This document shows, piece by piece, positions 12,171-59,424 of a stretch of 64,000 nucleotides of DNA (its first letter is position 1; each line of letters begins with the position of its first letter). Both the position numbers and the translations under genes were made by a program. The notes below the pieces were generated by a model, which was given only the letters and a program-made list of their open reading frames with translations, did no database searches and was not told the origin of the DNA. The stretch spans positions 12,152,001 through 12,216,000 of the forward strand of contig CP158635.1 in NCBI GenBank assembly GCA_050273025.1, given 5' to 3'. The stretch comes from Cenococcum geophilum. Taxonomy: Eukaryota.

Positions 12171-12301
12171 TCTGCTGGCTACTATTCTGGTGCCTCCCTA
12201 GGTAGGGAGGACGTAAGTAAGGAAGGAGGGGTAAAAAATAGGGTGGCTATATAGGGCAGAGGCACCTATAGGGCTATTAGGAATATAGCGGGGACCCAAT
12301 G

Positions 12302-12747
12302 CAGAGCTTCGTGTAGAGCCTCCGTACGTAGAGCTTCGCGTAGAGCCTCGTGTAGAGCCTCTATATATAGAGCTTCGTGTAGAGCTTTGTATAGAGCTTT
12401 GTGCAGAGCTTTGTGCAGAGTCTCTATATATAAAGCTTCGTGTAAAGCTTCATACAGAGCCTTATATGGAGCCTCTGTACATAGAGCTTTATATAGAGCC
12501 TCGCGTAAAGCCTTATATAAAGCTTCGTGTAGAGCCTCGTATAGAGCTTTATATAGGGCTTCGCGTAGAGCTTTATATAGAGCCTTTATACGTAGAGCTT
12601 CGTATAGGGCCTTATATAGAGCCTTATATAAAGCTTTATGCAGAGCTTTATATAGAGCTTTATATAGAGCCTTATATAGAGCCTTATATAGAGCCTTATA
12701 TAAAGCTTCGTGTAGAGCTTTATATAGAGCTTTATATAGAGCTTTAT
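12302..12747. repeat. 12-bp minisatellite AGAGC(C/T)TYRTRT; resumes at 19439-19482 after the LINE
   Basis: Visible array. It generates the spurious ORFs 12387-12806 and 12466-12813. Confidence 0.92.
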
Positions 12748-20068: not shown

Positions 20069-20872
20069 CTACCTACTAATTATAATAGTATATTAATAGG
20101 CTATTAACTAAAAAATACTAGCTTAATATAATTATAAAAAAGAAACTAGTAATAAATATTAATAATATTTCTTACATTTTATATCATTATTAGGCCCTAA
20201 ATAACTCTATATTTTTAAATAGATAATACGTTTTATAACTTTCTTTTCTAATACTTATATATATAGCAACTTAGCTAGGTATATTAGTCTATATTAAAAG
20301 AAATATAAAAGTAATAACTAAATATACTTTTAAAAATTATAATAAGGCTAGAAATATAGAAGCTGGTGAAAGTAATAGTAAAGATAGTAGTAAAGATAAC
20401 GGTAAAGATAATGACAAAAATAATAGCAAAGATAATAATAAAGATAATAGTAAAGATAAAGAATTTTAAAATAAGATAGATTTAGATTTAGATAAACTTA
20501 TTAAGGCTTTATACTATAAATATATTACCCTTATTCTCCTTTAAAAGCCTAAGGCTAATGTCGGTATCACCTGGGGGGGTACTGCAATTGCAATATAAGG
20601 TAACTGGTTCTTGGTTTCATTCGTGTCTCTCCTTCGTCTACTAAAAGAGAAAGAAAGGGGTAGTAAAGGTCGGGCTATCTATCGGGCCGTAGGTGGTCAG
20701 GTGACCTATACTACGCCATGCGGCCCTACCGCATACGCTCTATACGTAATGCAATTTACAACCTCTACTTATATAGACACTGGCGACATTTATAAAAAGA
20801 AAGAAGGTAAGAAAGTACAAAGGAGAAGTATATAGGTCAACAGGTGCTTAGGGCAGTAATCGCGAATGTCTC

Positions 20873-21012: not shown

Positions 21013-22650
21013 CTATCCGTTGTCGTTAAAATAATAGTTAAGGAAGTCGATATCAACTGTAAGGTTCTCTGTATTAACCTTATTACCGCGCCTTGCTATA
21101 CCAGGTTCCGTACCACCAGGTTCTGTACTACCGGTAAGGCTGTGGACAAAGGCATTGTTGTTCATAGACGTGACTATATTTTTAGCAGTTTTAATTAGTA
21201 TTGGCCCATTTAAAGTCATAAAGTGCTCAACACCATAGTCATTGTAGAAGAAATTGCCGCTAGTGGTAGTCGGAGTTGATGTATTAAGTGCCATAGCCGT
21301 TATGTTCTTGTCAAAATCGTCATTAATATCGTTGTCCGTAAGGTACTGGTGGACACGTCTCTTAAATCCTTCTCTTGCTTCGTTACGTTCTTCTTTAGTG
21401 TGCCTAGTTAACTAATAGTCTCCTTTCTTACACACGAAGCACGTCCTAGCATTATTGCCGTAACGGTTATTTGATGAACTTAGTTAAGACGTCGGTTGGT
21501 AGTAGCAACGGTCCGTAAAGAACACGTCGGTGGGCTGTCCTATAGTACTATTAATCTTCCTATAAGTAACAATTGACGATCGTAGGCTGTTTATAAGGCC
21601 GGTAAGTGTAGTAGGCGGGTTAGAGTAAGCTGCCTGGTAAGCAGCGACGTCTTGGTAAGCGACGATGAGCTTATTATAGAGGAAGTCGTTGTTGCGGAGG
21701 TTGGCGTTAAGACTATGCTGTAAGTGACGGAGGTCGTTAAGTAATAGCTATAGGCAGTCCTCTGTAGACTTACCCTCGCTCTTTATTATTACTGTCTTAA
21801 GAGTTATAGTATTCCACTTTGTTAGAACTCTATGCTTGTATTCTAGTCCTTTAAAGTGGTTGCGTATAGCGTTACAGATGCTGTTAAAGGTGGTGTAGGT
21901 TGCCTTGTTCTTATAGTAGAAGTCAAGAGCAATACCACGTAGCATTGTCGGAAAGCCTTTAATCTTTGCCTCTTGTGGTATATTAACTCTGTTACAAAGG
22001 TCGTTGAAAATCGTGAGCTTACGGTCGAAGTTGTCATCCTCTCCACTGTACTTGCTTTCCTCCGTATATATCTTTACTAAAGTTACTAAGTCTCTGCCAT
22101 AGGTGGTGGCTTTGGCTTCTATAGAAGGAGCTGTAACGTTCGTAGGGGGAGCCGTGACATTTATAGGCGAGGGAGGCTCGGCCGTAGGGAGGTCATTCGA
22201 GACAGCTGGGGTCGGGGTAGGTGCCGTTAAGGGAGTTAATGAACGTGATTTAAGACGGCGGTTGATAACGTACGAATTAAAGGGTCCTTCGTTATTAATA
22301 AATAGCTTAATCTCTTTATCTAACCATTCTATAGGGTTGTCCTCATGGGCGACGTCGTATAGTGCTTGTGGTGCTAACTTGCTTTTCTTATTAGAGACCT
22401 ATACTCCATTGCGTCAAAGTAGTTGTTTAAGTCCCCTAATTTTAGACCTGTTGGCATCCTTAAATGTCTGCACTGTAAAGTTGTTAAAGTCCTCTTGGTA
22501 TGCTTCCCATAGGTTTTTGTCCTTAAAGTTGTGCTTAGTATACTTATTAATTTTAAAGTTAATATAGTTAGTGATATCTTCTGCGGTAGTCTCGTCAGTT
22601 AGGGTGATCCCATTACCCCAGTTCGGACGTTGGGTTCCTGTGTCGGACAT
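21013..22650 (-). pseudogene. gag: GalEa-type gag of element F with a few RIP stops
   Basis: ORF fragments 22414-22650, 21748-21945 (MLRGIALDFYY...) and 21013-21294. Zinc knuckle CFVCKKGD..ST.H at ~21400-21443. Homologous to the gag of C2 (49100-50600). Confidence 0.85.
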
Positions 22651-22823
22651 GACTGGTGTAGATCGTGGTGTTTGTGGCTTGCAAAGGCCGTAGGAAGGAA
22701 GGGGATACGCTGGCGTTTAGGGCGTGCTATTAACGTAGTTTTCGACGTAGCAGATGCTGCTGGGTTATAGGGTGTACTGGCGCTCAGTAAAGAGGTCGTA
22801 CTGGGTATTGATTTACGTGGTGA

Positions 22824-23103
22824 ACGCGAACCGGACAAAGCCTTAGTAGGAGCCAGTTCTTTAAGTTCCCAGGGCCTTGGTAGGAAGGGTTCTCCTTAGT
22901 AAACGCGACGTGATCAACGGGCCTTGGTAGGAGCGATCGCGTATCGTCTCTCAAGTGGTTATTTTGCGTAATGGACGCGAACCGAACGAAGCCTTGGTAG
23001 GAGTCGGTTCTTTGAGTTCCCAGGGCCTATACAGGAAGGGTTCTCCTTAGCAAACGCTACGTGATCGACGGGCCTTAGTAGGAGCGATCGCGTGTCGTCT
23101 CTC
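22824..23103. repeat. ~128-bp direct duplication in the 5' UTR of element F
   Basis: 22824-22952 versus 22975-23103. Confidence 0.88.
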
Positions 23104-24497
23104 TTCGTAATAACACCTGGCTAATCTGTGATATCAACTGATCAGTGTCGGTATCACCCGGGGGGGTACTGCAATTGCAATATAAGGTAACTGGTTCTTG
23201 GTTTCATTCGTGTCTCTCCTTCGTCTACTAAAAGAGAAAGAAAGGGGTAGTAAAGGTCGGGCTATCTATCGGGCCGTAGGTGGTCAGGTGACCTATACTA
23301 CGCCATGCGGCCCTGCCGCATACGCTCTGCGCGTAATGCAATTTACAACCTCTACTTATACAGACAGCTAAATAAGATCTTCTTATTATAGAGATTAATT
23401 TACGGTTTACTAAAAGATATAAATAGAAATAGAAATAGTAAAGCTTATTTAAAAGCTTTTTCTTTAATAAATAATAACCTAGATATAATAAGATATTTTA
23501 TATTTATAAAGTTAATAACCTAATTTTTAATTTAATAATATATATAATTATTTTAAGTATTTTTAATAATACTTAATATTGGTCTTATAAGGTAATATTA
23601 CGTATCTACAAGTTGTAGGTAGTAAAATAGTTAATTATTATATTCTATCTAGAATGAGGAAGGGTAAGGAACCTAAGGTTCCTTACCACGCTAGTGCCGC
23701 GGCGGTACGTGACGGCAGATTGCCTTACGTGACGGCAAATTGCCTTATATAACGGCAATTTGCCTCATTCCTAACACTAGCAACTCTTCTTTTATAGTTA
23801 CTATCTATATATAAATAACGACGGGCTTATATAAACGCTACTATTTAACAATACTAAGCTAAGGGTTAACGCGAAGACGATAAGAGCCGCTAAGGCGCTA
23901 GTAGTAAGCGAACTAATAGCAATTTTCTATGCCGGGCATAGAAAATCCTAATTAGCTACTCTTAAATTACTTTATCTCCTACTTCCTCTTAACCTAACCT
24001 TTAACTTAGATATATAGAGTATTTATATTAATAAAGGTCTCTAGTGCCTTATTTAGGTTTACCTTTATTATTATATCTACTAGGTTATCTTAGTGTTATA
24101 AAATACCCCTATAACACCTTGCATACGTCTACCTGTTTCTACTAACTTAGCAATTAAAGACCAACCGCGAAATAGCAATCTGACGGCAATCTGATGGCAA
24201 TCTAACGGCAATCTATGGCATTTTGCTATATTCTACTAAGTTCCACCAAATTCTGCTAAGTTCTGCTAGGACTATAACCTAAACCCTATTCTGCCTATAT
24301 ACGTATTAACTAAGCAACTAAGTTAACAATATATGCCCTTTCTTCCTATTTTCCTACCTTTTTTCCTTACGTAACGTCTTAACCTCCTTATACAGTTTAT
24401 ATATATAGCTTAATAATATTTACCTTGCTATATATTATCGTCGCTTATACTTACTCCATAATACTACATTACATTAACCACCTATACTACTATTAAC

Positions 24498-35341: not shown

Positions 35342-36151
35342 GGTCCTTAAAATCGGACTCTATACCTATATATAGTAAGGCCTATAAACCTACTAGTTTT
35401 TGGATTTAGTAAAGCTTATATAGAGATGTTATATAGTGTGCGGGTAGGACTTAGTAGTTATTAAAATATTAGGGCAGTGGTGAAAAGTTTTTATATAGAA
35501 TGGTAAGATCTTAAAAACCACCGCTATTGGTACCCCTTTATAGTAGATAACTTCTATATACTCCTATTTAACCCTATATAATCCGTATAGATATAAAATA
35601 GATTCTATAATATCCCCTAACTATTAATTAAAAGCTTTAATAACCTTTTATATTAATAAATAAATAAACATATACCCCCCCTTTACCCCTAGGGCAATTT
35701 CCCGCAGAGTATATAGTTACTTACCGTACTACTATAATACTACTGCCTAGCAGCCAGATATAACCCCCTATAGTTTTTCTATCTCCTCTTAACGGCTTAG
35801 TAACCCTTAGAGAGGGCCTAGTAACTAGGGCATAGGCGTAAAAGATACTTAGGTATACATATATATCCTACTTTCATCTTTTAGTATTAGGATAGTAAAA
35901 TAGATAAATCCCCCTTACGCCTTTAAGAGCTTTAGGGGGAGGGGGGGCGTATATAGTAATAGTTAATAAGAGATAGTATATAGCGGACGGTTAAGATATA
36001 GGCAATAATAATAAGCATGCAGTAATTAATTAATTAATGGTAAGACCTAGTAAGGATATAGTAAACCCTAGCTATAGATAAGCTAGGAAAAAGGAAGTAG
36101 TAGTTATTAAGGAGATCTAATATCTAACGGAGGTTAGGACGTAGCTATAGG
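35342..36151. repeat. Unclassified repeat E, copy 2 (uninterrupted, inverted relative to copy 1)
   Basis: Contiguous reverse complement of 10815-11452 plus 19877-20068. Cut at 36151 by Gypsy B2. Confidence 0.8.
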
Positions 36152-39100
36152 TATAACGAAGCCTTATAGGAAATGCTATGGTGGACTTGTTAATAGGCCG
36201 GGTATATAGGTATAGAATAGTTAACAACGTAAATATAACTAGTAGAGTAGTTACCTAATAGATTAACTATAAAGAAAAGAAACTATCTGTAGAGACCGTA
36301 TATCCTTAAATATATAACTCCTCCTTATAGTAAAGGGTTTAGTATATTAGTACGTTAGTATATTGGTACGTTGCGTTCCTACGTTCCTATATTCCTACAT
36401 TTTAAACTTATAGCGTAACTAGCTATATAACTTAGCTACCTTTTATCCTATAGCTCGATCAGTTCTAGCGCCTCCTATACTATCTTAACTAACCCATTTA
36501 TGTCTCTTCTTAGTAGTTATACTACTGCCGATATAAGGTCCGTAACACCATCCCCCTCTTTATCTTCGTCCTTAAAGATATCCCTTATCTCTAAGTCGTC
36601 TATTAAAGGTATAGTATTCCCGTTTTTAATTTAATGACCTTTATTATTCCTAATGCCTTCTATTAGATCCTTTATATCTAATCATCGTAACCGGCTGGTG
36701 ACGTTTATTCTATTACTTGGTAAAGTTATACCGTCCTATTCTTATTATGCGGAGAAGAAGTTAGTATACGTTATAATTACGGCTCCGTCTAGTTGCTAAC
36801 CTTCTTCTTATACTAAGTATACGCGTCTTATTATTCTTTATAACCGTTTGGTTCCTTATCTAATCTTCTTTAGGGTTGCGCGTATTAGTAGCGGCTAAAA
36901 GACTAGAGAGTAAGCTGGCTAGGGCCCTTACTAAAGTTCAGCGCCATTTTAATGAGGCGTCTTAGGCTCTAAAAGCTTAACTAAATACTTATGCTCGCCT
37001 AAGCCGTCTAGCAAAGGTGCGTAAAAAGGTGCGCTTAAAAGAGCTTTATTTAGTAGAGTAAGGTCTATTTAAACTTAAGGCTAAGGAGGCTAAAAAGGGT
37101 TATAATTAAGAAGAGGCGGAAACAGTTTATACGCCGGTAGTGAATCCCTTAGATAACCCGGCTCGTCTATTGCCTTTAACTAATCCTTTTGTTTTAAGCT
37201 TCTTTTTAATATTACCTAACCTATTTTCTTTTAATACTCCTATACCTTTCCTATAGCATTTTTTAAATTCTATAGTACTTCCTAGGTAGTCTTATTATAG
37301 CCTATCCACTTAACCTTATACTATATTTTATTATTAATGTCCTTATAACTAACAATCTTTAAAACTTACTATTTATCTTCCTCTTATCCTCTATACATGT
37401 CTGCTTTATAGATTAGTAGCTTAATATTTCTATATACTAGCTCTAGCATTACAATATACTATATAGGGTAGATCTTTATTTTAGCTAGTAGGTTTAGCTT
37501 AAATATAACCGGTAAAATCCTTTAAATAATTTTAAAAGGTCCTAGTCTGATATAGTCTAACTTCTTACTTAGTTATTAACTCTTAAAATTTTTATATAGT
37601 AGCTATACTTTGTCTCCCTCCTTAAGATCTAGTCCCTTAGATCTCTTAGCATTATAGTACCTTTTTATTCTTTTTTATACTTTCCTTACTAATTCTACAA
37701 GGTCTATATAAAGATTTATTAGCGTCTTTATTCTTTCTTTAGCTATGCTACTTATTTTCTTCGCTTATTATAGTAATAACGATATTCTTAGCTTATATCC
37801 GTAATTTGCCTTAAATAGTAATATGCCTATTCCTTCTTGTAGTGTTGCGTTGTATATAAATTATATAACTAGTAATAATAATACCTAATTGTTCTATACG
37901 TGATTAATATAATATCTTAGATACTGTTCTAGCGTCTAATTTAATCCTTTTATTTAACTATCCGTCTGCGGGTAATATACGGTAGAAGTTGCTACTCTAA
38001 CTCCTTGTTCCGCTAAAAATACCTCCTAAAATACTACTATAAATCTTAGATCTCTGTCCAATATAATCTTACTTAGTGCTCTATATTTTATAAACACTTC
38101 CTTAATATAGATTCTAGCAATATCCTCCACTAAGATTTCTTCTATGCATACTATAAAGTAGCCCTATTTAGTTAACTTATCTATTATTACTAAGATTATA
38201 TTATACTCTTATCCGGTAATAGGGTCTCTTAACTTTAATAACTTAATAATAAAGTCCTATAATATAACCTTCTATAGTCTCTCTGGTATTTTAATAGGTA
38301 ATAGCCCTCTATATAGCTTATACCTTATTAGTTTATTCCTTTAGCAATCTAAACACTCCTTTATTACTTTTCTTACGATATTTTAGATTCCGTTAATAAT
38401 GTATTCTTCCTAAAGTCTTAACACTAAGCCTATTACTCTGTTATATCCTTAAGTTATTCCCTTATAGAAGTCTTCTATAAAATGCTCTGCTATGCTTTTT
38501 AGGATATACTTTGCTTCTTAATTCTCGTTATATCCATTCGTAGATCTTCTAGCTATACTTTTAGAATTCTTTACGCCTAAAAGCTCTTTAGTGTCTTATA
38601 GATTCTTTCTAGTTTATTGTCCTCTTAGGTTGCTGCTAGCTTAGGGTAATTATACTTAATTAATCCGTCCTTATCTTTGCGTAGCATTGCTCCTAATGGT
38701 TTTTTATTATTTTATAATTCAGCCTTTTTGCTTAGTGTATCTGCCCTTATATTCTTAGTTCCCTTAATATACTAAATCTTAAAATGGTATTCTATAAGTA
38801 TCTCTACCTATCTAACTTATCTATAATTGAGTTCTTTTATTATTAGAAACCCTATTAGGTTCTTATAATCTATCTTAACTATAAATGGTTTCTCTACGCC
38901 TTATAAGAATGCTCTTTATTTATTAAGTGCTGTAACTATACCTAATAACTCCTTATTATAAACGTCATAGTTTAATTCTAATAGTGTTATCTTCCAACTA
39001 TAGTATGCTACTAAATGCCATGCGTCCCTATGCTTCTGTAGTAAGTATACTCCTAATATATAATCCAATATATCTATTTCCACAACCGTATCTAGTCCTA

Positions 39101-43585: not shown

Positions 43586-46500
43586 TAAGCACCTTAGGCT
43601 TACAGCCCTTTCCCTCCTTATTAGTTTGTCTCTATACTTAAGCTATTATCTATCCTTATTACTATATTGTCCTCTTTTATTAACTTCTTATATAACTTAT
43701 ACTCGGCTTACCTACTCCCTACTATACACCTTAGCAATACTGCCTTATAAATAATTTTAAAAAAAAGCTATAAAATAGTATATTAGAGTTAAATATAGCT
43801 ATAAAAGTAAATTAAGTTCCTAATATATTTTAATCTAATTTATAATATATTCTAATTTAGTTTTAAATATATTTTAATCTATTTTTAAATATATATAATT
43901 TAAAGTTCTTTTTATTATATTTATAAATAAAAATTATTTAAGCTCTTTATATTACGGACGCTTTAAGTATAATATTATAACTATTTAAAGAAGAGTTGGA
44001 AGAAGCTAGTTAGTTAATTTAGGTATAGTCTAGAATAGAGTTAATAGAGCTATATAATAAGAAATAATAACTAAGGTTATATAACGTTATACGCAGTATA
44101 CGCAGTATATAAAGGGAACGTATATATAATATATATAATACATACCTTACGTATAAAGGGGATTTCTTAGGAGTATAGTTATATATTTAAAGGACCACAG
44201 TCCCTACTTAAATAGTTCTCTCCTTTATAATAAATCTTAGAATATAATTAGAGTTAATCTATTAGGTAACTACTCCACTAATTATATTTACGTTGTTAAC
44301 TATTCTATACCTATATACCCAGCCTATTAATAAGTCTACTATAATTCCTGCTATAAGGCTTTATTATATATTTACTACTAAGGTTATAGTAAAAAAAGTT
44401 AAATAATATGCTACTAAAAGCAGCAGCTACGACGGCGTTAACAGCGGCGACTACCTTAGGATTAGGTAATAACACTAGTATAGTAGATACTAACTTATAA
44501 CTAGTTACTATTAAACAGCTATAGAAAATAGTTAATTAATTAATAAATAATAATAGAATACTTAAAGAAAGGATTAACGGGATTAGAGCGGCTAAGGTTA
44601 AGTTACCCTTAATTAAGCAATTCTTAAAAGAGAAGTTAAAGTTTAAAGGATTCCTTATATAAATGCACTTTAAGGTTATATAGGAAGGAGTTAAACTAGA
44701 AACGCCTATAGATAAAGTCGCTTATATAGGATTATTCTTAATAGGAAGAGCACTTAAGTAGTTTAAGCCTTACCTTATAGAGGTATAGGAGTATAGCATA
44801 ATAACTACTAACTAGGAGGTATAGTATATATTCTTAAGTTAAAACAGGTTCGCGGAATAATTAACGCAAATATTTAGAGACCTAGAGGCAACTACTATAG
44901 TAGAAAGAAAGCTTTAAAACCTAGTATAAAGAACTTTAGTAATTAAGTACATAATGTAGTTTTAAATCTTAATAATATAGGTCGAATAAAATAATAAAGC
45001 GCTTTTAGCATAGTATAAACAGGGACTTAAGATAAAAGTTTAGGATGTAATTATTCTAATAGAAGATGCGGATACTCTTAGGGATTTAATTAATTAAGTA
45101 ATTAAGATCAATAATAGGATCTACTAAAGAGAGTAGACCAAAAAGGGTTAGAATAAAGTTCTATAGTTATATAAAGCGTAGGGCACGCATTAGCAAAGTT
45201 AAAGTTAAAAACTATAATATAGCGCAGAGCTAATAAACCTAAGTAGTACTAAAGAATCTAGAAAATAAAATAAGAAATTATAGAAACCTAGAGGACAAGG
45301 ATTAAGTAATTAAAGGTCTAAAAAGTAAAGGCTAAATTAGGGATCTTAGTAGTAGAAGACATTTAGGCGGACTCTATAATAAGAAAAATGGTTTAAAGAA
45401 GAAGCTTATATAAATTGCGGAAAATAGGGTTATTATATTAAAGACTATAAGAGTAGTTAAAGTCACTATATAGTAAAAGGAACGAGACTAGTAGAAGATA
45501 TATATAGAGGGATAATAGTGTACTATAAGGAACAAAAGAATGTTTAATTAATAGCTTTGCGTTTTATTATAATAACGTATACCAAATTTATAAAGACGCT
45601 AAGTATGGCGTAAGCTACTAGCTATAGGAGCTAGGATTATTAGAGTTTAGAGGAACTAATAAACCAGTTCATAGATTGGATATTAAGGACAATAAGTTTA
45701 ATATAGGCAAAATATTTAGTAATAATAAGGTAATAAAGGCAGCTTACTAGAAGTATATAGACCTTAGAAATATTATATAAAAGGTAAAGAATAATTCCAC
45801 TACAGAATAGGGAATATTAGTAAGGATTAAGACCCCACTAGATACAATATCTATCGCTTTATAAGATATAAAAAAAGTAGAATTATAAACTACTTCGGCA
45901 CTTAATAAAGGCAAAAGGCTATAAGCTTAAGATTCTTAAGATAAAATATAAGATAACTAAGATTCTTAAGATAAGATAAGGTAAGCTTAAGGACCTATAA
46001 TAAACAATAACTAAAAGAGCAGAGTAATGGCTTAGTTTAGTAATATATAAATAAGCTTAGGACGAAGTTTCCTAAGGATATAAGACTTTTAAAATAAGAT
46101 AAGTAAGATTTAAAACTCTTAAAATAAAATAAGAACATTAGTAAAGCCTAGTTAGACTAAGGCTAGAGCTAAGCTTAAAATAGAAGTAAGCTTAGGATTA
46201 AGAATCTTATAGAACTAAGATTTTAACACATAAATAAGGACCATTAAAAAATACAACACTAAGATTAAGAAGTAAGAAGACTTTAAAGATCTATCTATAA
46301 AATATAAACTAAAAGAAACTATAGAGGAATTTAGGTAAAGAATTATCATATAATAAGAACAGAAACTAGATAAGAGGTCTAATATACTAGGACGTATAAA
46401 GGATAGAGTACCTATATAAAGAATTACTAATAGGCCTAGGGTAGGTATACTAAGAGCTAAGTAGCTTACTAAACTAGAAAATAAAGAGGATCTAGGGATC

Positions 46501-48393
46501 CCTACTAGGTTTAAAGAACGATATATAAAGGGCTATTACAACATAGTAATAAGAAGATACTTCCTTATAGATAAGCTATATATACTCTAATAGCTATACT
46601 AAAAGTAGTATAGATAGCGACATAATAATAAGTAGGAAGATTTCTATATATAGTTAGATAAATAAGTTGTCTAGAACCACCCGATTATAAAGAAGGCTGT
46701 AACTCACATTAAAGGAGCCTTAATTATAACGTTAAAAGATCCAGAGAAATAATTAGAGGATTAAAAAAGTAAGAGACGTATCTTAGTACCTATAAATAAA
46801 GTTATAACGTTTAGATTAACACGGCAGAGGTTTAAACTTAAACTTAAAGATAAGTTAAAAGTTAACCTAAAGTACCTAGCACACTATATACTATTATAGA
46901 TTGTATATATAGATAATATATATAAAATGCACAAGAATCTAAAGGAAAAGAATTAGAAATACCCTATAAAGATATATTAGGCGCTAAATAAGCAAAAGTA
47001 TAGGAATGCTAAATATATATATAGGTAGCATCTAACAGAAGTTTAAAAGTTAGAAGACTTAATACTTTAACTAGGAAAATTCCTTACAGAAAAATACTTA
47101 GATAGATAATAGTAGTGGAAATACCTAGAGAATATATATCTATAGTATATTAAAGACAAAAAGCAAACTAGGTATTAGCTAAAGAGTAAGCTAAGTATAA
47201 TAGGATTAAGTAGCTAATAGTTAGGAAAAGTAAAGGCCTATAGGACCAGAGGGAGCTAGTAGTAGAGCCTTAAACCCTTAAAGGAATTTAAGGATAATAC
47301 CTAAATTTATAAGTTAATTAGCAAGATTAACAGTTTAAAGCACTAATAGATAGTAGAGTAACGCGAAACCATATCTTACTAGTAGTATTTAAGAGAATAG
47401 GATTACCTTATAAATAGAAGAAGCAACCTTACCTATTAGTTATAATTTTAGGAGATCTAATAGCCTATAGAGAAGGGATTATCAATCTTAAAATAGGACT
47501 TATTTAGATAACCATTAAAGAAAAATAAATTAAGATATCTTTTAATATCCTACTATTAGGATAGGATAAGGCAGTATTAGGAATACCTTAGTTATAGGAG
47601 TATAATCTAAAGATTAATTAGATTACAGGTTAAGTTAATATTAAAGATATTTAATACTGTAAAATGCGATAGTAAACTAAGTTAGTATAGTACTAAGTTA
47701 AAGCGATATATAAAGAGACTAAGCGAGGCTTAAGTTATATACTAAAGAAATACTATAAATATAGTAAGAAATTATAAAGCCTAGAAAGTAAAAAGCTAGT
47801 AGATTATATAGTATAGAACTATAAAATAGAGTTAGAACTAGAAATAAGTCTAAGGTTCTTTCTAACTTATAAGCTTACTAAAAAAGAGTCCAAAGTACTT
47901 AAAAAGTTTATTTAAGAAAACTTATAAAAGGGATACATTAAATCATCGCAGTTATTAGTAAATTATCCAGTACTATTTATACTAAAGAAGAATAGAAAAC
48001 TTAGGCTATATATTAACTACAGACAGTTAAATAGTATTACTAGAAAGGATAGGTATCCTTTACCCTTAATTAGCAAAATCTAAAATCGGATAGGTAATAC
48101 GCAAATTTTTATAAAAATAGATCTAAAATAGGCATACTATTAGATTAGAATTAAGAAAGGTAATAAATAAAAGGCAGCCTTTAGGTTAAGAAAAGGACTA
48201 TATAAACCATTAGTTATATAATTCGGATTAATAAATATACTAGCAACATTTTAAAAAAGAATTAATTATGTATTAGAAAAATACCTTAATAAGTTTATTA
48301 TAGCATACTTCAATAATATTATTATCTACTTAATAACTAAGAAAAAATACAGGGAACACGTTAAATAGGTTTTAAAGAGACTATAAAAAGAAC

Positions 48394-51300
48394 TATATAA
48401 TTATAGCACCTATTATATTAACTATATACTTACACATTCGGTATACCAGGTACATATTTACGCGTTTAGTGCACTAACTACTTGCTTACGCGTCTAGTGC
48501 ACTTATAAAGCACTAACTAATTAGGGGGGAGGTATATTAGTATATAGACTACGTAGTCTACTTTATATAATTAACAGTCACTATTATCCGAACGAGTATA
48601 TAATACTATACGTATTTCGTGCCCCTAGATCTAACTTACTTATACTATTAAATTAGTACAAATATTAATTAATAAGCGTGCATAGATTAGCAATTACTTA
48701 ATACCTCTCCCTAAGCAATACTCGACAGCGACTACCTGTTTAGACTCCTAGTATAACCTACTAGAAGGTTAAAAGTCAGGGATTACAGACTTATCTCTAA
48801 CTCTATATACTTATTTAAGTCTTAGTACAGTTTACTAGAAGTTATAAACGTAAATATAAACCTTTATAAAACCCCCTATCCTTAACCCCCTTAAACCTTA
48901 AACCTCTTTAAACCTTACGGAAACCTCCTACCCTCCTATAAACCGTTATGGACCCATTAATTGCCTTTACGGACTACTATAAGACCTCTTAAACTATTAT
49001 AGACCTACTAATTAATTTTACGGACTGTTATAAGACCTCCACCCGCTATAAGCTATTACTACCCTCTATAGCTTATATAGATATACTATACTATATAATA
49101 TAGCAGATATAACTAAGTAAATTAGTAAAGGTTAAAAGAAGTAGAGTTAAGGAGTTAACCTCACATCTATAGACGGCGTTAATAACTATATTAATTTTAA
49201 AACCCTTAAATATGGATACTATAAGCTTCTAAATAATAACCTATAGGAGCAATATAAGGAAGACTTTGCAGACTTTATAGAAGCTATTCTTAAGGCTTAT
49301 AACCCTACTACTATCTATAACCTATAAACCCTTTTATATTACTAAGATATATAGGTTAAAAAGGATAAATAAGTTACTGTTGTATGGTCCTTATATAATA
49401 TAATATAGGAGGAGGACTAAATAGAATAGATTAAAGAGGAAATCCTAGACTAGGTAAAAGCCACTAAAGAACTCTTTACTTTTTTTTAAACTTAATAGGA
49501 TCGCTAGCCTTATACCTAACCTACTTAACTAAATTTACCCTATAAACCTAAGCGGTTTTAGAACTAACCTTACTAGCTAAAATATACCCTACTCTTAAGC
49601 TATGGACTATAATACCCCTATAAATCAAAATACGGACTAAATTACCCCTATTATTTAAGTTACAGATCTATAAGCTATATATCCGCAAACTATATATTTA
49701 TAAGCTATATATCCGCAAGCCACAAATCTATAAGTAATAGATCCGTAACCTACCTAAGTAAAGACCTATAGTAAGGAGCTAGCTAACCTAGCTAAATTTT
49801 ACACTAATAAATCTAAGTATAGCGGTAAAAATAATAACTTTAACTTTAAACTAACTATCTTTACGGACCTTTATTAAAAGGCTAATATTCCTAAATAGGA
49901 ATTTAGCCAAGCCTATTCCACCATACTGCGCGGCCTAGTACTTAACTACTACTACACTAACCTTAAAAGCAACCCCCTTAGTGTTCCCTTTAATAAGCTA
50001 TATAAAGCTATATATAACTACTTTAAAGGACCAGAATATAAGCGTAATATCCTTACCTAATAGGATGCGACTAAGCTATAGACTATAATTAATAAGAACA
50101 CTAAAAAATCGACTATAGAGTGCCTACAAATCCTTATTAAAGACCTTTAGCACCTATAGCACAGCCTTAACGCCAAGCTTTAAATAGACGACTTCCTATA
50201 TAATAAACTTATTATAGCCTACTAGGAAGTAGAGCCCTATAAGTACGCCTATTACAAGCCTATAGATACCTTAGCTAGCCTTATTAATAATCTACGCTCC
50301 TCTATTATAATATATAAAGTCTTAAACCTACTAGGCAGCACTTAAGCCTTTATTATAAATATTTAATATCCGCAAATAGACTTAGATATCTACTTTATAG
50401 ACTACTACTACTATTAGCAGCATTTGTACCAACTAAGTCCTACCTATAACCCCTATAGTAACCCCCGTACAAAAATATACCCCTATAGACAAACTAGCTA
50501 AAAGTGCTTTATATACGGTAAAGAAGGATATTAGTCTATAAGATATACCTAAAAAGAATATAACAAGTCCAGAAAGAGACTTAATAGCTATATTAACCAG
50601 TTTATTTTTAGAATATAAAGAAAAGAAAGTAAAAAAGCCCCCTAATAAGTTAATAAAAGCCCTTATAATTAACTTTAATTTAAATACTTAGAAATAAAAA
50701 ACCTTAGAGACATTTCTAACTACTTTTAGACCTTTTACGGACAGCTAAGCCTTTAATATTACGACCGTATTAGCTAACCGTTCCTTTATATACTTAATTA
50801 CGCCCAAAAACCATTTTATAAGCACCCCCGTTATAAATATTATAAATTATAGGCAGGACCTATTTATATATATTACTACAGAACGCTATACCCCTAAGAA
50901 ATTCTATAGTGTTATAATTAACACAAATGCCTCTAAAAAGTCTACTATAGGCTATAGACAATACCTTATATATAGGACCATCACAAATAATAATATAGAC
51001 ATTAATATTACGCAAACTAGGGCCGTAAACGTCTAATTTAGCATCAGCTCAACCGCATTAATTAAATTAGTTAAAGTTAAGACTCTAATTGGCTTAGTTA
51101 ACTTCCACGTAGTAAAAGAAGATACCTCTTTTCTACTCTACCTTACGGATATAGATAGGTTATAGGTATACTATAATAACGTTATAGACACCCTAATTAG
51201 CCCTATAACTACCCTAGGAAGTAAGTATATTACCCTACTAATTATATAACAATTTAGACACTCGTTCCTTATATAGGGAGAGACCTTACAGATATATATT

Positions 51301-54300
51301 TAGGAATCTTTTAACTATAACCCGTGTTACCTTACTAGTACAAAAATCTACCGCCTATACCGCCATTTCGGCCACCTATTAGCTAAAAAGCTATATAAAG
51401 TCCTTAAACGCTCTAGACATAACAACGTTAACAGGAAGGTAATTAACCACTTAACTAAATACTGCTCCTACTGCTAGAAATATAAACATTCTCTAGGCCA
51501 ATTTAAGTTCACCCTTTATAAGGATCTTAACTTTAACTATTTAGTATACGTAGACATTATATACATTAACGGCAGCCTAGTACTATATATAATTAATAAG
51601 GCAACCCACTACTAAGCCGCCTATTAGTTATAAAATATATCTATAAAGTATACTTAGGATATTTTACGAACCTACTAGATTAATATATACGTTAAACCTC
51701 CTAAGTATATTACCCACAACGCTAGTAGGAACTTCATTAGTAAGAAATTCTAGCAGTATGCTATAGCTATAGTTATATTAATAAAAGCCGTTCTAGTTAA
51801 GGCGTATTAGTTTATTAGGCTTATTAAGCGAGCTTACTTAGCTTTATAGAGAGCTTATTAGATTATTATAGACGAATATAAGGATATTTAAAAGGAACTA
51901 GCTCTACAAATAGCCGTAAAAGCCGTTAATAACACTACTAGCCTAGACGGAATAGTACCTACCCTCTTAGTCTATAGAGCCTACCTAAGGATAAGCAAAC
52001 TAAATCCTCCTACCCTATCTATTACAGAACGAGCAGCTATAATACGGAAGGTAATAGCTAAGATAGTTAAGCTACGGGCCAAATAAACTATTAATAACGC
52101 CTTATACTACCGTAACGGACCTAATATAACCCTAGTACACGGCCTTCCGCTTAACTCTAAAGTCCTTATATAGTATAAAAGCGGCAATTAAAATAGACCT
52201 TATTGCCTACTAGCTATAGAAAACGAAATGTGCTATATATAACTCCTTAGTAGGCTAACTAGCTTTAGAAGCACGTTTATAAAACCCTACTTTCGGCCTA
52301 AAGACAACTATAATATTAAACCAGATAAACTAGAAGCACCTATTAAACTAGATAAACTAAAAGCACCTATTAAACTAAATAAACTAAAAGCACCTATTAA
52401 ACTAAACGAACTAAAAGCACCCGCTAAACTAAATAAACTAAAAGCATCCCTGCCTACCTTAAAAGTCCCCTAGGAACTTACTAAACCCGTTAAACCTATA
52501 AAGCGTAGTTAAGGACGCCCCTAAAAGCACCCTATAACTAAGAACTCTATAATAAAGAATTACCTAACCTCTGCAGGAATATCCGTAAGGTAATCTCCGC
52601 CTATAAATATATTAGTTCTAGTATAGAAAACCCCGTTTACGGACTTATAACGTAAGGAAATTAACGGACTACTTAAAAAGGGTATCTTTGCGGTTATAAT
52701 AGAAAGAGACATTCCGTAAGGCGCCTATATATTTAATTTATACTTTATTAACAAAATTAAACACCCTAGTACTAATAAAGCTTTTAAAAAATTAAGGCTT
52801 ATTATATAAGCCTATAATAACCAAGGAAAGGGCTTAGTCCTTATATAATCGCCTATAATTTAATAAGTTAGCTAATAGATTATACTTGCACTTATGCCTA
52901 GACTATAGTAAAGTAATCCTATAGCCCTTTACCTACGGGATATCTCGCAAGCCTATATACAGTCTAATACTTACCTAAGCAGAGATATCTTTATATAACC
53001 ACCCTATAAGCTTAACCTATAACCAGGAACAATTTTATAGGTTATAAAACCTCTCTACAAAGTACTAGAAGCTAGAAACCACTAGTTTAAGACGTATTAC
53101 TAGCACTATGTTAGCAAACTTAAAACGAAATAGTTAACCTATAACCCCTACCTCCTATACACCTAATTAAACGGCCTTAGTATTATTAGACTCCAAATAA
53201 ATAATACCCTATTCTTAGCAGACTAAACCTTTATAGATGCTAAAGAAACTAAACTATAAAAGGCTAAGTTCTTAGTAAAGCTATAAGAGTAGTTAACTAA
53301 GTAGAATCTAATTAAGTTTAATAAAGGCCTAATTACCTAAAAAGGCAACCTAATTGAGCTAACTTAGGAACGCTAAGCCTAAAACCTAAAGCCTATTATA
53401 GTAAAGCCTATAGACCTTACTAGCTCCCGCGGAGAGACCTATAAGACCGTAAATATAAAGAACTAATACGTCGCCTAGCGTGTAAGAGGCGCCTATATTA
53501 CTACGGTTTGTTAACCTAAATCTACCATAATTTGTCCTTTACGGCCTAAGTAATAGATCTATAAAAGGAAAATATTAAGTAGCTTAATAAGCGTATTTAG
53601 TAGCAAATTAACAATATAGTAAGGGGACTTACTTTTATACCACTAGACCTAAACTCCCTTAGTCTACTAGTATTTATAGATGCCTTCTTCACCAATAATA
53701 AAGACCTATTATTACAAATTGGCTTTATAATTGTACTTACGGACCGTAATTAAGACGCAAATATACTATATTAGTCTTTAATTAAGTATAAATAAGTAAC
53801 CTAAAGTATACTAGCTTCTAAACTATATATACTAGCTTATAGCTTTAATATAGCAGCCGCAATCAAATTAACAGTCTAGAAGATTCTATAATTAGAGCAG
53901 TTACCCCTAGTCTTATATACTAATTTAAAGTCCCTCTATAACTGCTTAGTTAAGCTAGGTATAATATAAGAGAAAAGGCTTATAGTTGACCTAATATACT
54001 TATATTAAGCCTATAAATGATACAAAATTATAAAGGTTAAATAAATTAGTGGTAGAAACAACCTAGTAGACGCCATAACTAAGGTAAAGCTGTATTAAGC
54101 CCTTAAAACCCTAATTAATATAAATAAGCTTAACCTAAAAGTTATAGAATAGGTAAAACGGGATTAACGGAGCACCTATAGTACGTCTACAGCCTATTAA
54201 AAGGCCGTATGGCTTATTATACAGTCAGTTTTATAGACTGTAAGCTATTAAATAATTGGTATAGGTAGATTACTTTAGATTACCGCAAACTGCCTATATT

Positions 54301-54965
54301 ACGGTACAGGTAGAAAACGGTAGAAAAGCTACGGTAGAACTTAGTAGACTTACGTAACCTATTAAATTCTACTATATTCTGCTATGGTAGTTAAATTAAC
54401 TAATTATAATTTTCTATCCCCGGGATAGAAAATCGCCATTAGCTCGCTTAGCACTAGCGCCTTAGCGGCCCTTAAGATCTAACTTATGGCTTATCTACGA
54501 CCCGTTAAAAGGCCGTACGGTTTATTTTACGGACCGTAAGCAGGACTTATGGCTAGCGTAGGGCACCGTTTGGAAGGCAGCCTAGACGGCACCTTAGGGG
54601 AGATTTCTTATATATTTTCCTTTGTATTTTATAGTTTTATTAAAGCAATTACGGAGGGTATATATAGGTGGTTTTATTTTTTAAGTACCACCAGTATATA
54701 ATTATAGCACCTATTATACTAACCGCGTGCTTACGCGTTCGGTACACTAGGTATATATTTATATATTTAGTGCACTAACCACTCGCTTATGCGTCTAGTG
54801 CACTTATAAAGCACTAACTAATTAGGGGGGAGGTGTATTAGTATATAGACTATATAGTCTGCTTTATATAATTAATAGTCACTATTATCTAAACGAGTAT
54901 ATAATACTATATGTATTTCGTGCCCCTAAATCTAACTTACTTGTGCTATTAAATTAGTACAAATA
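48394..54965 (+). mobile_element. Ty1/Copia (GalEa-like) family C, full-length copy C2 (6.6 kb)
   Basis: 271-bp LTRs at 48394-48664 and 54695-54965. TSD AGAAC/AGAAT at 48389-93 and 54966-70. gag, protease (~50905-50930), IN (RL.RHFGH ~51351-51376), RT and RNase H in Copia order. ATTAATTAAT palindrome at the 5' LTR. Confidence 0.95.
52322..52445. repeat. 27-bp in-frame tandem repeat in the Copia C2 IN-RT linker
   Basis: AAACTAAAAGCACCTATTAAACTARAT, ~4.5 copies. Confidence 0.88.
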
Positions 54966-57199
54966 AGAATAGATACTAGTAGCAATTGAGAAGTACAAGT
55001 TCTTTATAAAAAAAACTAATTTTATTAAATTTATTATTAAACTAGGTTATATTAGTATAGACCTAAAGAAGATTAAAGCTATAGTAAGTTGGTAAGAACT
55101 AGAGAATATAATATAGTTAAGGTTAGTTTTAGGGGTTTGTAACTACTACAGAAGGTTTATAATATAATAGTTAAAGAATATTAAACCGTTTACCAGGCTT
55201 ATAAAGAAAAAGGAACTATAGGTATAGGGAAATAAATAAAAGAAGTTGTTTAAGAAACTTAAAAAGTTATTTACCTAGAAGCCAATCCTTAAAATCTATT
55301 AACTAGGATTAGACACGGTTATAAAAACAAACGCATTAAACTATATACTATAAGTATATTTACTACAGAAGTATAAGGACGCATAGCACCTAATATTATA
55401 TTATAGTAGAAAGATAATACTACTAAAGTTAAACTATAACGTCTATAATAAGGAGTTATTAGGGATAGTTATAGCACTTAAGAAATAGAGAGTATTCTTA
55501 TAAGGCGTAGAGAAACTATTTATAGTTAAAACGGATTATAAAAACCTAACGGGGTTCCTAATAACAAAAGAACTTAATTAGAGGTAAGTTAAATAGGCAG
55601 AGATGCTTATAGAATACTATTTTAAAATTTAGTATACTAAAGGAACTAAGAATATAAGAGCAGACGCACTTAGTAGAAAAGCTAAACTATAGAATAATAA
55701 GAAGCTATTAGGAGTAATACTACGCAGAGATAAGGATAGATAAATTAGATATAATTACCCTAAACTAGCAGCAACTTAAAAGGATAATAAATTAAAAAGA
55801 GTCTATAAGACACTAAAAAGCTTTTAGGTATAAAGAATTCTAAAAGTATAACTAGAAGATCTATAGATAGATATATATATATATATAAAAGCGAAGTATA
55901 TCCTAAAGAGTGTAGCAAAGCATTTTATAGAAGACTTTTATAAGGGAATAACTTAAGGATATAAAAGAGCAACGGGCTTAGTATTAAGACTTTAGGAAGA
56001 ATATATTATTAATAAAATCTAGAATATCGCAAGAAAAGTAATAAAGAAGTGTCTAAATTACTAAAGAAATAAACTAATAAGGCATAAGCTATATAGAGGG
56101 CTATAACCTATTAAAATACTAAAGAGACTATAGAAGGTTATATTATAGGACTTTATTATTAAGTTACTAAAGTTAAAAAATCCTATTACCGGATAAGATT
56201 ATAATATAATCTTAGTAATAGTAAATAAGTTAACTAAATAGAGCTACTTTATAGTATATATAGAAGAAATCTTAGTAAAGGATATTACTAAAATCTATAT
56301 TAAAGAAGTGTTTATAGATATAGAGTACTAAATAAAATTATATTGGATAGGGATTTAAGATTTATAATAGCATTTTAGGAGGTATTCTTAGCGAAGCAAG
56401 AAGTTAAAGTAGTAACTTCCACTATATATTACCCGCAGATAGACAGTTAAATAAAAAGATTAAATTAGACGCTAGAATAGTATCTAAGATATTATATTAA
56501 TTACGCATAAAATAATTAGGTATTGCTATTACTAGTTATATAGTTTATATATAATATAATACTATAAGAAGGAATAGGCATATTACTATTTAAGGCAAAT
56601 TATGGATATAAGCTAAGAATATTATTATTACTATAGTAAGCGAAAAAAATAAGTAGCATAGTAAAAGAAAAAATAAAGACGTTAATAAATCTTTATATAG
56701 ACCTTATAGAATTAGTAAAGAAAGTATAAAAAAGAATAAAAAGGTACTATAATGCTAAGAGATTTAAGGGACTAGATCTTAAGGAGGAAGATAAAGTATA
56801 GCTACTATAGAGGATTTCACTAGTGATATTTAAGTTAAACCTACTAGCCAAGATAAAGATCTACCCTATATAGCATATTGCGATGCTAGAGCTAGTATAT
56901 AGGAATATTAAGCTATTAGCTTATAAAGTAGACACATATAGAGAATAAGAAAAAGATAAATAGTAAGTTTTAAAGATTATTAGTTATAAAAACATTAATA
57001 ATAAAATATAGTATAAGGTTAAGTAGATAGGCTACACTAAAACTACCTAAGAGTCACTAAAAAATTTAAAAAATACTATAAGAAAGGTACAGAAGTATTA
57101 AAAGAAATTAGGTTAAGTAGTATTAATAAAGAAAAATTGCTAAAGAATAAGTTACCTAAGGGGGACCTAAAAAGAGCAGTTACTAAACTACTTAGATTT

Positions 57200-57700
57200 A
57201 TTTTCTTCTTAACTAGAAGAGAATCTATTCTTTTATTATTAAGTTTTTATAAACCTTATTCTATAAGTTTCTACTTCTTAAAATAAACCTTCTTATAAAC
57301 CTTCTTAAGACGAAGTAACTGAGTAGATGCCGCAATATAGGCTTTAAAAGCCTTCTACTCTATATTATAAGAACGTTCCAATTTAGTAAGGGCTTAAGAT
57401 AGTTCACTATCTAGCTATATAGTAGTAGATTAAATATAAGACTCTAAGACAAATTAATTAAGGAACTAGATAACTATTTAGAGTAATAGGTTGCGTATAT
57501 TTAGCATTAAAGATAGAGTAAATATTATAGGATAAATAAATATTCGCTTTAGTACACTTTAAGTAAAAGAACAATTATTATAAGGAAGGGCTTACTAATG
57601 TAATATAAACTAACCCCTTTTTTAAACAGCAGAAATATGGAGATGGTATAATCTTACCAAAAGATAATATTATAGCAATAGTGCGAGTATAACGTTACGC
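57200..57700 (-). pseudogene. Antisense accessory ORF of Gypsy B3 (homologue of 36653-37200); ends approximate
   Basis: Minus strand reads IPSPYFCCLKKGLVYITLVSPS...YLKCTKAN (57649-57545), followed by QLLRLKKVYKKV. Confidence 0.65.
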
Positions 57701-59424
57701 CTATAAAGAGGAAGGAGCCTTAGGTATAATAAGCAATAATATTAACTAAATTAATTAGATAGATATTATACCTCTAGTAAATAACCTAGAGATATTTAAA
57801 ATCTTTAAGAATAAAGATAAAAAGGAGGGAGATAGTATTACGGACGCTTTAAGTATAATATTATAACTACTTAGAGAAGAGTTAAAAGAAGCTAGTTAGT
57901 TAATTTAGGCATAGTCTAAAATAGAGCTAATAGAGCTATATAATAAGGAATAATAGCTAAAGTTATATAATATTATATATAGTATACGCAGTATATAAAG
58001 GGAATGTATATATAATATGTATAATACGTACCTTACGTATAAAGGGGATTTCTTAGAAGTACGGTTATATATTTAAAGGACTATAGTCCCTACCTAAATA
58101 GTTCTCTCCGTTATAGTAAATCTTATAATATAATTAGAGTTAATCTATTAGGTAACCACTCTACTAGTTATATTTACGTTGTTAACTATTCTATACCTAT
58201 ATACCCAGCCTATTAATAAGTTTACTATAGTTCCTACTATAAGGCTTTATTACACTTTAGGTACTAAATAAAAGTTATATTTATTATATTAATTTAAAAA
58301 GTATAAATATATATTCTTAAGCTAATAATATTAGTTCTTTTAAATATAAAGGGTAAAAAATATTATAAATACCCTTAGAATTTATAATAGTTTTTATAAA
58401 ATATAAGGTCTAATATAAATAGAGTAAATAGCTTTTAATAAAAGTAAAATAGATATTTATAAATATAATATAAATAGGTATAGAACTAGTTTTTAAATAT
58501 ATTTAATATTTAAAAGAGCTATAATCTAAATCTATATTATATTTTAGGTTATTTTTTATAAGATTTAAAAAATTATAAGGTATATTTATATTTTAGTATA
58601 TATATAATTAGTTATTAATACTAGTTCTTTATAGTTACTAAAGTATTAAGCTTTAAATAATAACTAAAATATTTAAATAAAAATTAAAGACTTAAATTTT
58701 ATAAAATAAGGCTTAAAGTAAAGGTAAAGTAGTTTTAATATATATAAATATATATAGTTTTTAGTTATAATAAAGCAGCTTAAACTACTAAAATTATATT
58801 TAATAATAATATTTAATCTATCTATCGCAGTCACGTAAGGGGATATTTAATTTTTGTATAATTGGGAGGCGTAGGGCTATAAGGTCGCTCTAGGGCTAGT
58901 TCTTAGCAGTTTTGCTAGTTCCTAGCACTTAAATCTGCTAAGGATTTGCCCTAAAGCGGCCAGATATCCCTAACTATAAGCCTATAGCTGCAAGACTATC
59001 TAACTATAGTGGTCGCATTAAGGCTGGCTTTTAGTAGTTTTACTAGTTCCTAGTACCTACTAAAGAATTGCCTTAAAGCGCTATCTATATATAATGTATA
59101 CTGAGTATAAAGGATAGCGGGTGGGGAAAGCGAATTAGCTACGTAGTAACTGCGTTTAATATTCGCGAATATTGCAGGAGGTCTTAGCATTATGCGTTGC
59201 TAAGGTAGTTACTACCAAGCAATATATAGACGCTAGTATCTATCTATCGCAGTTACGTAAGGGGATATTTAATTTTTGTATAATTAGGAGGTGTAGGGCT
59301 ATAAGGTCGCTCTAGGGCTAGTTCTTAGCAGTTTTGCTAGTTCCTAGCACTTAAATCTACTAAGGATTTGCCCTAAAGCGGCTAGATATCCCTAAGCGAA
59401 GCTTCTGCGCCCAACAAGACATTA

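Follow-up and report, generated by a model that had tools for sequence, protein, structure and literature searches.

Does the stretch between the end of pol and the 3′ long terminal repeat (LTR) of a Gypsy retrotransposon of Cenococcum geophilum carry the remains of a further gene, and what would such a gene have encoded? The question is raised by a 64,000-nucleotide piece of contig CP158635.1 (assembly GCA_050273025.1, positions 12,152,001–12,216,000 of the forward strand), called the window below, which holds two related Gypsy copies, B2 and B3. The original prediction, made from the letters alone, placed in B2 an open reading frame (ORF) antisense to pol, between the chromodomain and the 3′ LTR, in which tyrosine codons stood for the six cysteines of a Gal4-type zinc cluster. 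The position was borne out: window 36653–37256 (plus strand) is a dead copy, altered by repeat-induced point mutation (RIP), of what is truly a third gene in this Gypsy lineage. The overall explanation offered below, including the proposed nature of the protein, we consider about 70% probable. A single short intron splits the gene, which is situated between the pol end and the 3′ LTR, into two exons, and its remains are distributed in the window as follows.

36653–36818, plus strand: exon 1 (dead), with the start Met, a basic stretch, the Cys1–Cys4 positions now Tyr, and one premature TAA
36819–36873, plus strand: intron of 55 nt, with AT at the 5′ site (G>A by RIP), a branch-like CTAAT, and TTTAG at the 3′ site
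36874–37256, plus strand: exon 2 (dead), with the long-helix segment, an acidic-hydrophobic tail, three premature TAA/TAG codons, and the stop at 37254–37256
57076–57860, minus strand: the B3 copy of the gene, more diverged and more heavily mutated

Two dead copies and their unmutated relatives

When intact relatives were compared with the window by tblastn, exactly two places were found, namely B2 and B3. Residues 31–84 of P0070 aligned with 36665–36826 (exon 1 of B2) and residues 8–153 of P0062 with 36813–37250, the E values on B2 being 8e-27 for P0070 and 4e-43 for P0062. Relatives were collected by several searches: a word-based search of metagenome contigs gave 19 ORFs of about 98 amino acids matching the frame-0 (exon 1) peptide of B2, an exhaustive HMMER search gave 41 ORFs matching the frame+1 (exon 2) peptide, a profile search gave 93 matches including the full-length P0070, and a search with P0132 gave 16; among viral contigs, P0132 had no match. 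Most of the relatives found were mutated copies like B2 and B3, and several were unmutated.

Translation confirmed that the ATG at 36653 opens the predicted peptide, in which the string quoted as TRLNYS actually reads TRLIIL (the spacer still being six residues), and that the tyrosine codons are TAT or TAC. These codons had been regarded as RIP products of cysteines spaced 2, 6, 13, 2, and 6, and the unmutated relatives do have Cys at all six positions: P0070 (239 amino acids) and P0132 (152 amino acids), which carry both parts of the gene in one frame, and the loci L001 and L003 keep six of six, with the spacing C-x2-C-x6-C-x13-C-x2-C-x8-C. The first four spacers were thus right, while the last one is 8 in the family. 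The fifth and sixth Tyr of B2 proved not to be Cys positions, the former being the splice-junction codon and the latter lying inside the intron; Cys5 and Cys6 were removed by a 57-nt deletion in exon 1, between two short GA(G/A)TGT repeats.

The metagenome locus L001 has a GC content of 0.48 and no RIP signature, and its polypurine tract, leader, ATG, and exon 1 are as in B2. Exon 1 shows 44 differences from L001 to B2, of which 33 are C>T or G>A and three are transitions in the reverse direction; over 36548–36652 the two sequences are identical at 87 positions, and 15 of the 18 differences are C>T or G>A. This excess, together with the Cys codons of the unmutated relatives, indicates that B2 descends by RIP from an L001-like sequence and that its Tyr codons are former Cys codons. 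An ancestral Tyr at Cys1–Cys4, as the 19 mutated exon-1 ORFs would have it, was considered and overturned by the Cys residues of the unmutated relatives. In this way, RIP-scrambled DNA can be deciphered with the help of publicly available sequences of unmutated relatives.

Neither of the window copies can be functional. The B2 gene model (36653–36818 joined to 36874–37256) contains four premature stops, all of them TAA or TAG, besides the Tyr codons at Cys1–Cys4 and the deletion of Cys5 and Cys6. The B3 equivalent, which had been placed at 57649–57520 of the minus strand, is present and starts at 57637; it lost the ATG and has more stops than B2, with its intron at about 57498–57444, and it keeps the full six-Cys region, in which TGC/TGT codons survive, Cys2 and Cys5 being still TGT. 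The relatives form two subfamilies, characterized by AEKKLV (B2, L001, and P0070) and AKEGLV (B3, P0132, and P0144–P0148), respectively. These are only 62% identical in protein (P0070 vs. P0132), yet the Cys residues, the intron, the helix, and the tail are all kept, and the insertions and deletions between them preserve the frame.

A conserved antisense intron

The amphipathic segments into which both copies had been said to continue (ARLSRLAKVRKKVR / QLLRLKKVYKKV) were found, although one frame over from the Cys-like part in B2 as well as in B3. The spliced intron makes the two frames parts of one gene: its removal in B2 joins T to GG, by which a Trp codon is restored and the frame is shifted by one, and the spliced product reads ...KW LRVLVAAKRLESKL..., aligning with ...EW SRVVASAAKLESEL... 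of P0070. An alternative intron of 57 nt from 36817 would keep frame 0 but runs into a stop and was rejected, while the 55-nt intron at 36819–36873 fits the spliced ORFs.

The intron occupies one and the same position in each of the six genomic copies that were aligned (B2, B3, L001, L002, L003, and L004). The unmutated L001 and L003 have GT at its 5′ site and the four mutated copies AT, the change expected of RIP in a TpG. The branch sites are CTAAT-, CTGAC-, or TTAAC-like, and the intron ends in AG wherever the end is present and unmutated. In the genomic copies the intron stretch follows ...SVS(D/N)A(E/K), the full-length ORFs lack it, and six intron-less ORFs from separate contigs (P0070, P0132, P0149, P0020, P0044, and P0106) correspond exactly to the GT..AG splice product. 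One further ORF, P0143, has four residues (CTFH) where the others have the intron or a clean junction, and may be a copy from which most of the intron was deleted in frame.

Since the intron is antisense to the genomic RNA of the element, it would be kept through retrotransposition and inherited by new copies, as can be inferred from the replication of LTR elements, and it is a natural marker separating genomic copies from transcripts. The linkage of the homologues to Gypsy elements, which the original prediction implied, was found beyond the window: the gene is preceded by a polypurine tract and an LTR in B2, B3, and L001 and followed by the remnant of a chromodomain in B2, B3, and L004. The Gypsy copy of L004 is adjoined by a remnant of DUF3435 (Crypton-type recombinase-like; E 4.2e-08) on the minus strand, at about residues 879–991 of frame 2.

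Selection on the protein frame

The ratio of nonsynonymous to synonymous substitution rates (dN/dS) was determined over the Cys domain for the pair L001, which is unmutated, and L003, which is little mutated. It was 0.18 in the frame of the gene and ranged from 0.25 (in the opposite-strand frame sharing wobble positions) to 1.18 in the other five frames. Between B2 and B3, 17 of 32 residues encoded by 36998–37095 are identical in the frame of the gene, and 10 codons differ synonymously, as against 1–5 such codons in the other five frames; over 36880–37095 the mismatches at codon positions 1, 2, and 3 amount to 41%, 30%, and 53%. These figures show that the antisense gene has been under purifying selection, as had been supposed.

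Two further explanations have to be measured against this conservation. According to the first, which we consider improbable, a fragment of a host Zn2Cys6 regulator was captured once and has been carried along with no role for the element. Retrotransposons do pick up host sequence, the domain is Zn_clus-like, and a role for the element is itself putative; nevertheless, the six Cys residues, the intron, the helix, and the tail have been kept in both of the diverged subfamilies, the gene is always at the same place, and a useless passenger should decay in active copies rather than show a dN/dS of 0.18. According to the second, which seems less probable still, it is the antisense RNA and not the protein that matters, pairing with the pol and 3′-end part of the sense RNA and feeding or blocking RNA silencing. 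The transcript would overlap the end of pol, and transposon antisense RNAs are common triggers of silencing, but the frame-specific conservation, the invariant Cys residues, and the frame-keeping insertions and deletions point to a translated product. The roles of RNA and protein are not mutually exclusive.

The encoded protein

The intact relatives of the dead gene encode a protein of about 210 amino acids, in which a basic N-terminus and the six-Cys domain are followed by a helix some 100 residues long and by an acidic tail rich in Phe, Leu, and Pro. In the AlphaFold2 model of P0070, built from a 24-row alignment, residues 98–199 form one helix with a pLDDT (predicted local distance difference test score) of 95–99, while the Cys domain reached 48–72 and the tail was disordered. 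The hydrophobicity of the helix has a period of 3.5 residues, which was matched by 59 of 2000 shuffled sequences, and the 40-residue tail contains 6 Asp, 5 Phe, 5 Leu, 6 Pro, 1 Arg, and no Lys. A complex of two P0070 chains (residues 31–239) with four zinc ions was also modelled (score 0.07, mark 0.32), from which no verdict was drawn. The residues before Cys1, a basic stretch, resemble the basic/helix-1 part of the basic helix-loop-helix domain of ARNT weakly and not significantly (E 0.75).

The Zn2Cys6 scheme is C-x2-C-x6-C-x5-12-C-x2-C-x6-8-C. Zn_clus (PF00172) was the commonest weak Pfam match of the antisense proteins, found in six of nine members and covering all six Cys residues, and the second one was DUF3716, found in two of the nine (proteins of alignment A6; E 0.018–0.18). 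In ESM-Atlas the nearest cluster bears the automatically assigned name “Zn(2)-C6 fungal-type domain-containing protein” (score 0.92), which is to be taken as a lead only.

Weighing the evidence

A number of results weigh against the reading given above, some of them concerning the gene itself and others the zinc cluster. The Tyr pattern, taken alone, is not beyond chance, and it is the homology that shows the feature to be real. When the six-frame translation of the window was searched with the relaxed motif [CY]x2[CY]x6[CY]x5-13[CY]x2[CY]x6-8[CY], 11 matches at about eight places were obtained, six of which are unrelated to B2 and B3, and Tyr accounts for 7.5% of all six-frame codons. Moreover, ORFs of 98 amino acids are to be expected occasionally among very many copies, so it could be argued that both the Tyr pattern and the helical peptide arose by chance from AT-rich noncoding DNA that RIP has mutated between pol and the LTR. 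This explanation is already refuted, for practical purposes, by the intact six-Cys homologues, the dN/dS of 0.18, the conserved intron, the exact spliced forms, and E values down to 4e-43.

Further, the mutated exon-1 ORFs (alignment A2, P0001–P0019) keep Cys1, Cys2, Cys3, and Cys4 in 1, 1, 1, and 0 of 19 cases, respectively, and Cys5 in 11 of 19 and Cys6 in 6 of 18. The loss by RIP is thus uneven between Cys1–Cys4 and Cys5/Cys6, though all are TGY codons in a TpG context. The intron-less ORFs are most simply explained as transcripts, but the records of their contigs do not say whether RNA or DNA had been sequenced.

No read of the RNA run X21 fell on 36640–37180, and all 119 placed reads fit only in part and come from diverged relatives; they lie on the LTR/leader and on 37180–37700, and 20 contig pieces were placed from X22. 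The X21 reads carry C/G where B2 has T/A, and a less mutated relative therefore seems to be expressed in organism B. In the reads at 36478–36639 and 37180–37450 (LTR/leader and the 3′-end of the gene) the first mate was mostly on the minus strand, the strandedness of the library not being on record. In the DNA runs X1 and X5, the summed word depth over 36586–37179 was 20–50 times lower than over the pol end (about 26,000–74,000 vs. 435,000–2,650,000 in X1), and many contigs switch at 37206 into B3-like sequence. Consequently, 3′ regions of the B2 type are in the minority and differ by more than 20% from the commoner variant.

As for the zinc cluster, the HMMER comparison with PF00172 for which the original prediction had called remained below the Pfam cut-off of 21 bits in all nine members, the best match being that of L001 exon 1 (14.5 bits, E 0.039). 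A phmmer search of PDB sequences with P0070 brought up the zinc-cluster protein PPR1 (1pyi) at E 4.4 only, and none of the four matches of the A6 profile to PDB sequences at E ≤ 10 was a zinc cluster. The AlphaFold2 model of the isolated 75-residue Cys domain had a mean pLDDT of 45.6, too poor for fold comparison; the Cys3–Cys4 loop of 13 exceeds the usual range of 5–12 by one residue; and the Lys-Lys that follows Cys2 is missing from the AKEGLV subfamily. Finally, no CGG/CCG pair within 12 nt was found in L001 5590–6140, although this covers one unmutated LTR with its leader and says little alone. In the U3 region of this LTR (L001:5826–5886), four CACGTTCC units come after a tandem run of about four GTACGT-type units; both are candidate enhancer or binding repeats.

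The claim that this Cys spacing followed by a coiled coil is the Gal4-type architecture was therefore upheld as regards the long helix and not as regards family membership: given the sub-cut-off Zn_clus scores and the lack of a zinc-cluster match in the PDB searches, we call the domain zinc-cluster-like and do not file it in the Gal4-type Zn2Cys6 family, membership of which is plausible but unproven. It is possible, if on the unlikely side, that the gene is real while its six-Cys domain is no Gal4-type binuclear cluster and its product no DNA-binding regulator. The domain would then be another zinc or disulphide module, for example a DUF3716-like one, mounted on a long helix and acting via protein or RNA contacts, for instance in the assembly of particles, import into the nucleus, the targeting of integration, or the countering of silencing. 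In addition to the negative results above, DUF3716 speaks for such a module, since it is also found in an ESM-Atlas neighbour cluster (28% of members), besides the two weak matches here. On the other hand, the spacing fits the Zn2Cys6 scheme at all five spacers, bar the one extra loop residue, the order of Cys domain, helix, and acidic tail is that of small Gal4-type activators, and Zn_clus is the most frequent of the weak matches. In favour of the other module, DUF3716 genes are described in the relevant passage of PMC8232023 as being carried by a DNA transposon of Zymoseptoria, REP9, and a wider class of transposon-borne Cys-rich accessory proteins may exist in fungi.

A possible role for the gene product

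The DNA binding, the transcription driven by the LTR, and the regulatory role put forward in the original prediction are inferences. Binding of zinc by the six Cys residues and pairing through the helix are rather likely properties of the protein; by analogy, it may also be a nuclear, Gal4-like factor that regulates the element's own LTR or its silencing in a sequence-specific manner, which we regard as somewhat doubtful. In the mechanism that we propose, a whole lineage of fungal chromoviruses would encode a minimal Gal4-like transcription factor, in which a dimerising helix would connect a zinc cluster with an acidic tail for activation. The spliced antisense mRNA would start in or beside the 3′ LTR, and the factor would bind LTR repeats, for instance the tandem GTACGT and CACGTTCC units in U3, by which the element or neighbouring host genes might be switched on or off. 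Taken jointly, as a minimal Gal4-like factor of the element's own, made from a spliced antisense mRNA and binding LTR repeats as a switch, this remains a tentative reading, less likely than the nuclear role considered for itself.

The Gypsy copies and their surroundings

Throughout, the window consists of AT-rich fungal DNA that bears strong marks of RIP: in each 4-kb block the GC content is about 0.25–0.42, TA/AT is 1.55–1.88, and (CA+TG)/(AC+GT) is 0.31–0.62. Self-comparison and Pfam scans of stop-masked frames identified B2 as a Gypsy element with pol on the minus strand (RVT_1 2.4e-07, RT_RNaseH_2 7.3e-19, SH3_Tf2-1 8.2e-05, and Integrase_H2C2 0.0058). Reverse transcriptase, RNase H, and integrase follow in the order of a Ty3/Gypsy chromovirus, with a chromodomain remnant ending pol, and these three and SH3_Tf2-1 lie upstream of the remnant. 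The latter occupies 37365–37219 in B2, and the first stop beyond it is at 37218–37216, so the last 13 or so codons of the antisense gene overlap the pol end. Chromo was sub-threshold in the mutated window copies (E 0.19 for B2, with 12.1 vs. 25.1 bits, and 0.14). B3 is a second Gypsy copy, on the plus strand, and extends from 43950 to 58252. The parts of the two elements that frame the gene, and an insertion in B3, are the following.

36141–36547, minus strand: 3′ LTR of B2, by self-BLAST to the family LTRs, alignment with B3, and BLAST to L001 5599–6028; in the element sense (minus strand) it starts with TGTTACGG
36548–36558, minus strand: polypurine tract, GAGGGGGATGG in the element sense, abutting the LTR; read from the sequence and kept in L001
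36559–36652, plus strand: leader 5′ of the antisense ATG, near-identical to the unmutated L001 bar RIP-type changes
37216–37365, minus strand: 3′-end of pol with the chromodomain remnant, by translation; Chromo is the sole Pfam match, sub-threshold
57836–58252, plus strand: 3′ LTR of B3, by self-BLAST
48393–54961: nested insertion of about 6.6 kb interrupting B3, parts of which match 8424–9959 and 9949–10375

The LTR following the antisense gene in L001 is immediately succeeded by a seemingly intact, unmutated gag-pol (L001:1–6030, minus strand). Its Pfam matches comprise Retrotrans_gag, zf-CCHC, protease, RVT_1 (5e-32), RNase H (3.5e-35), and integrase. Because of this position, L001 is regarded as two elements in tandem with one LTR common to both.

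Two repeats of the window lie apart from the Gypsy copies discussed. A diverged direct-repeat array at 12299–12747 gives many self-matches at offsets of about 45–230 nt with 72–79% identity, and the window's least diverged pair of repeats, a direct repeat of 221 nt with 97% identity (20559–20779 and 23146–23366), flanks its GC-richest block (0.416 at 22001–24000).

Comparison with known systems

The antisense arrangement is not unprecedented. Boty-like Gypsy elements of Botrytis reportedly carry an additional antisense gene, brtn, which is said to have been described by Zhao et al. in 2011 (Virology 417:248). Passages of later papers place this extra gene of Boty-like Gypsy elements of Botrytis and Sclerotinia between pol and the 3′ LTR (PMC8365987, PMC7264820, PMC4227169, PMC5987419). 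Of the known cases this is the closest to our gene: brtn is antisense, occupies the same place, and belongs to a chromodomain-bearing Gypsy element of a filamentous ascomycete, and a Monilinia transcript resembling both a chromodomain-bearing Pol and BRTN fits an overlap such as that found here. An antisense gene between pol and the 3′ LTR was found in B2, B3, L001, and L004. The two genes are likened by position and orientation alone. The passages on brtn make no mention of an intron or a coiled coil, nor of cysteines or a zinc cluster; no relative retrieved from the databases bears the name brtn, and the name is absent from the supplements of PMC8365987.

Antisense ORFs between pol and the 3′ LTR, called aORF-3R, are also described in plant Ty3/gypsy elements (Grande, RIRE2, Retand, and PvRetro13; PMC7264820). 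As far as the passages of that source go, they agree with the present gene in position, orientation, conservation within families, and the absence of an assigned function, but occur in plant elements of non-chromovirus lineages such as Retand, and the likeness is one of layout, with no sequence relation claimed. The same source has extra antisense genes of LTR retrotransposons as long known in plants and Botrytis, none with an assigned function (PMC7264820). While the arrangement has thus been known since brtn (2011), the reading as six Cys, helix, and tail and the intron appear to be the new part: neither was found in the literature searched, the original brtn paper and the subscription literature lying outside its scope. 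With intact relatives under selection, this reading turns an “unknown aORF” into a testable hypothesis of an element carrying its own regulator.

With the Gal4-type transcription factors (PF00172) the antisense protein shares the six Cys residues spaced 2, 6, loop, 2, and 8, the long helix and acidic-hydrophobic tail that follow, and, in one subfamily only, the basic residues after Cys2. It differs from them in its length of about 210 amino acids, in the lack of a middle homology region, in being encoded by a retrotransposon, in its loop of 13, and in its sub-cut-off Pfam score.

HBZ of human T-cell leukemia virus type 1 is an antisense, spliced basic leucine zipper factor driven by the 3′ LTR. 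Like the protein considered here, it is regulator-like and comes from a spliced antisense gene that adjoins the 3′ LTR of an element replicating by reverse transcription, and it has a dimerising helix, as the present protein may have; unlike the latter, HBZ is a basic leucine zipper protein of an animal retrovirus, so the analogy is one of layout only. If the proposed role is true, fungi would have in the Gypsy gene their counterpart of HBZ, and zinc-cluster regulators of the host might have arisen from it.

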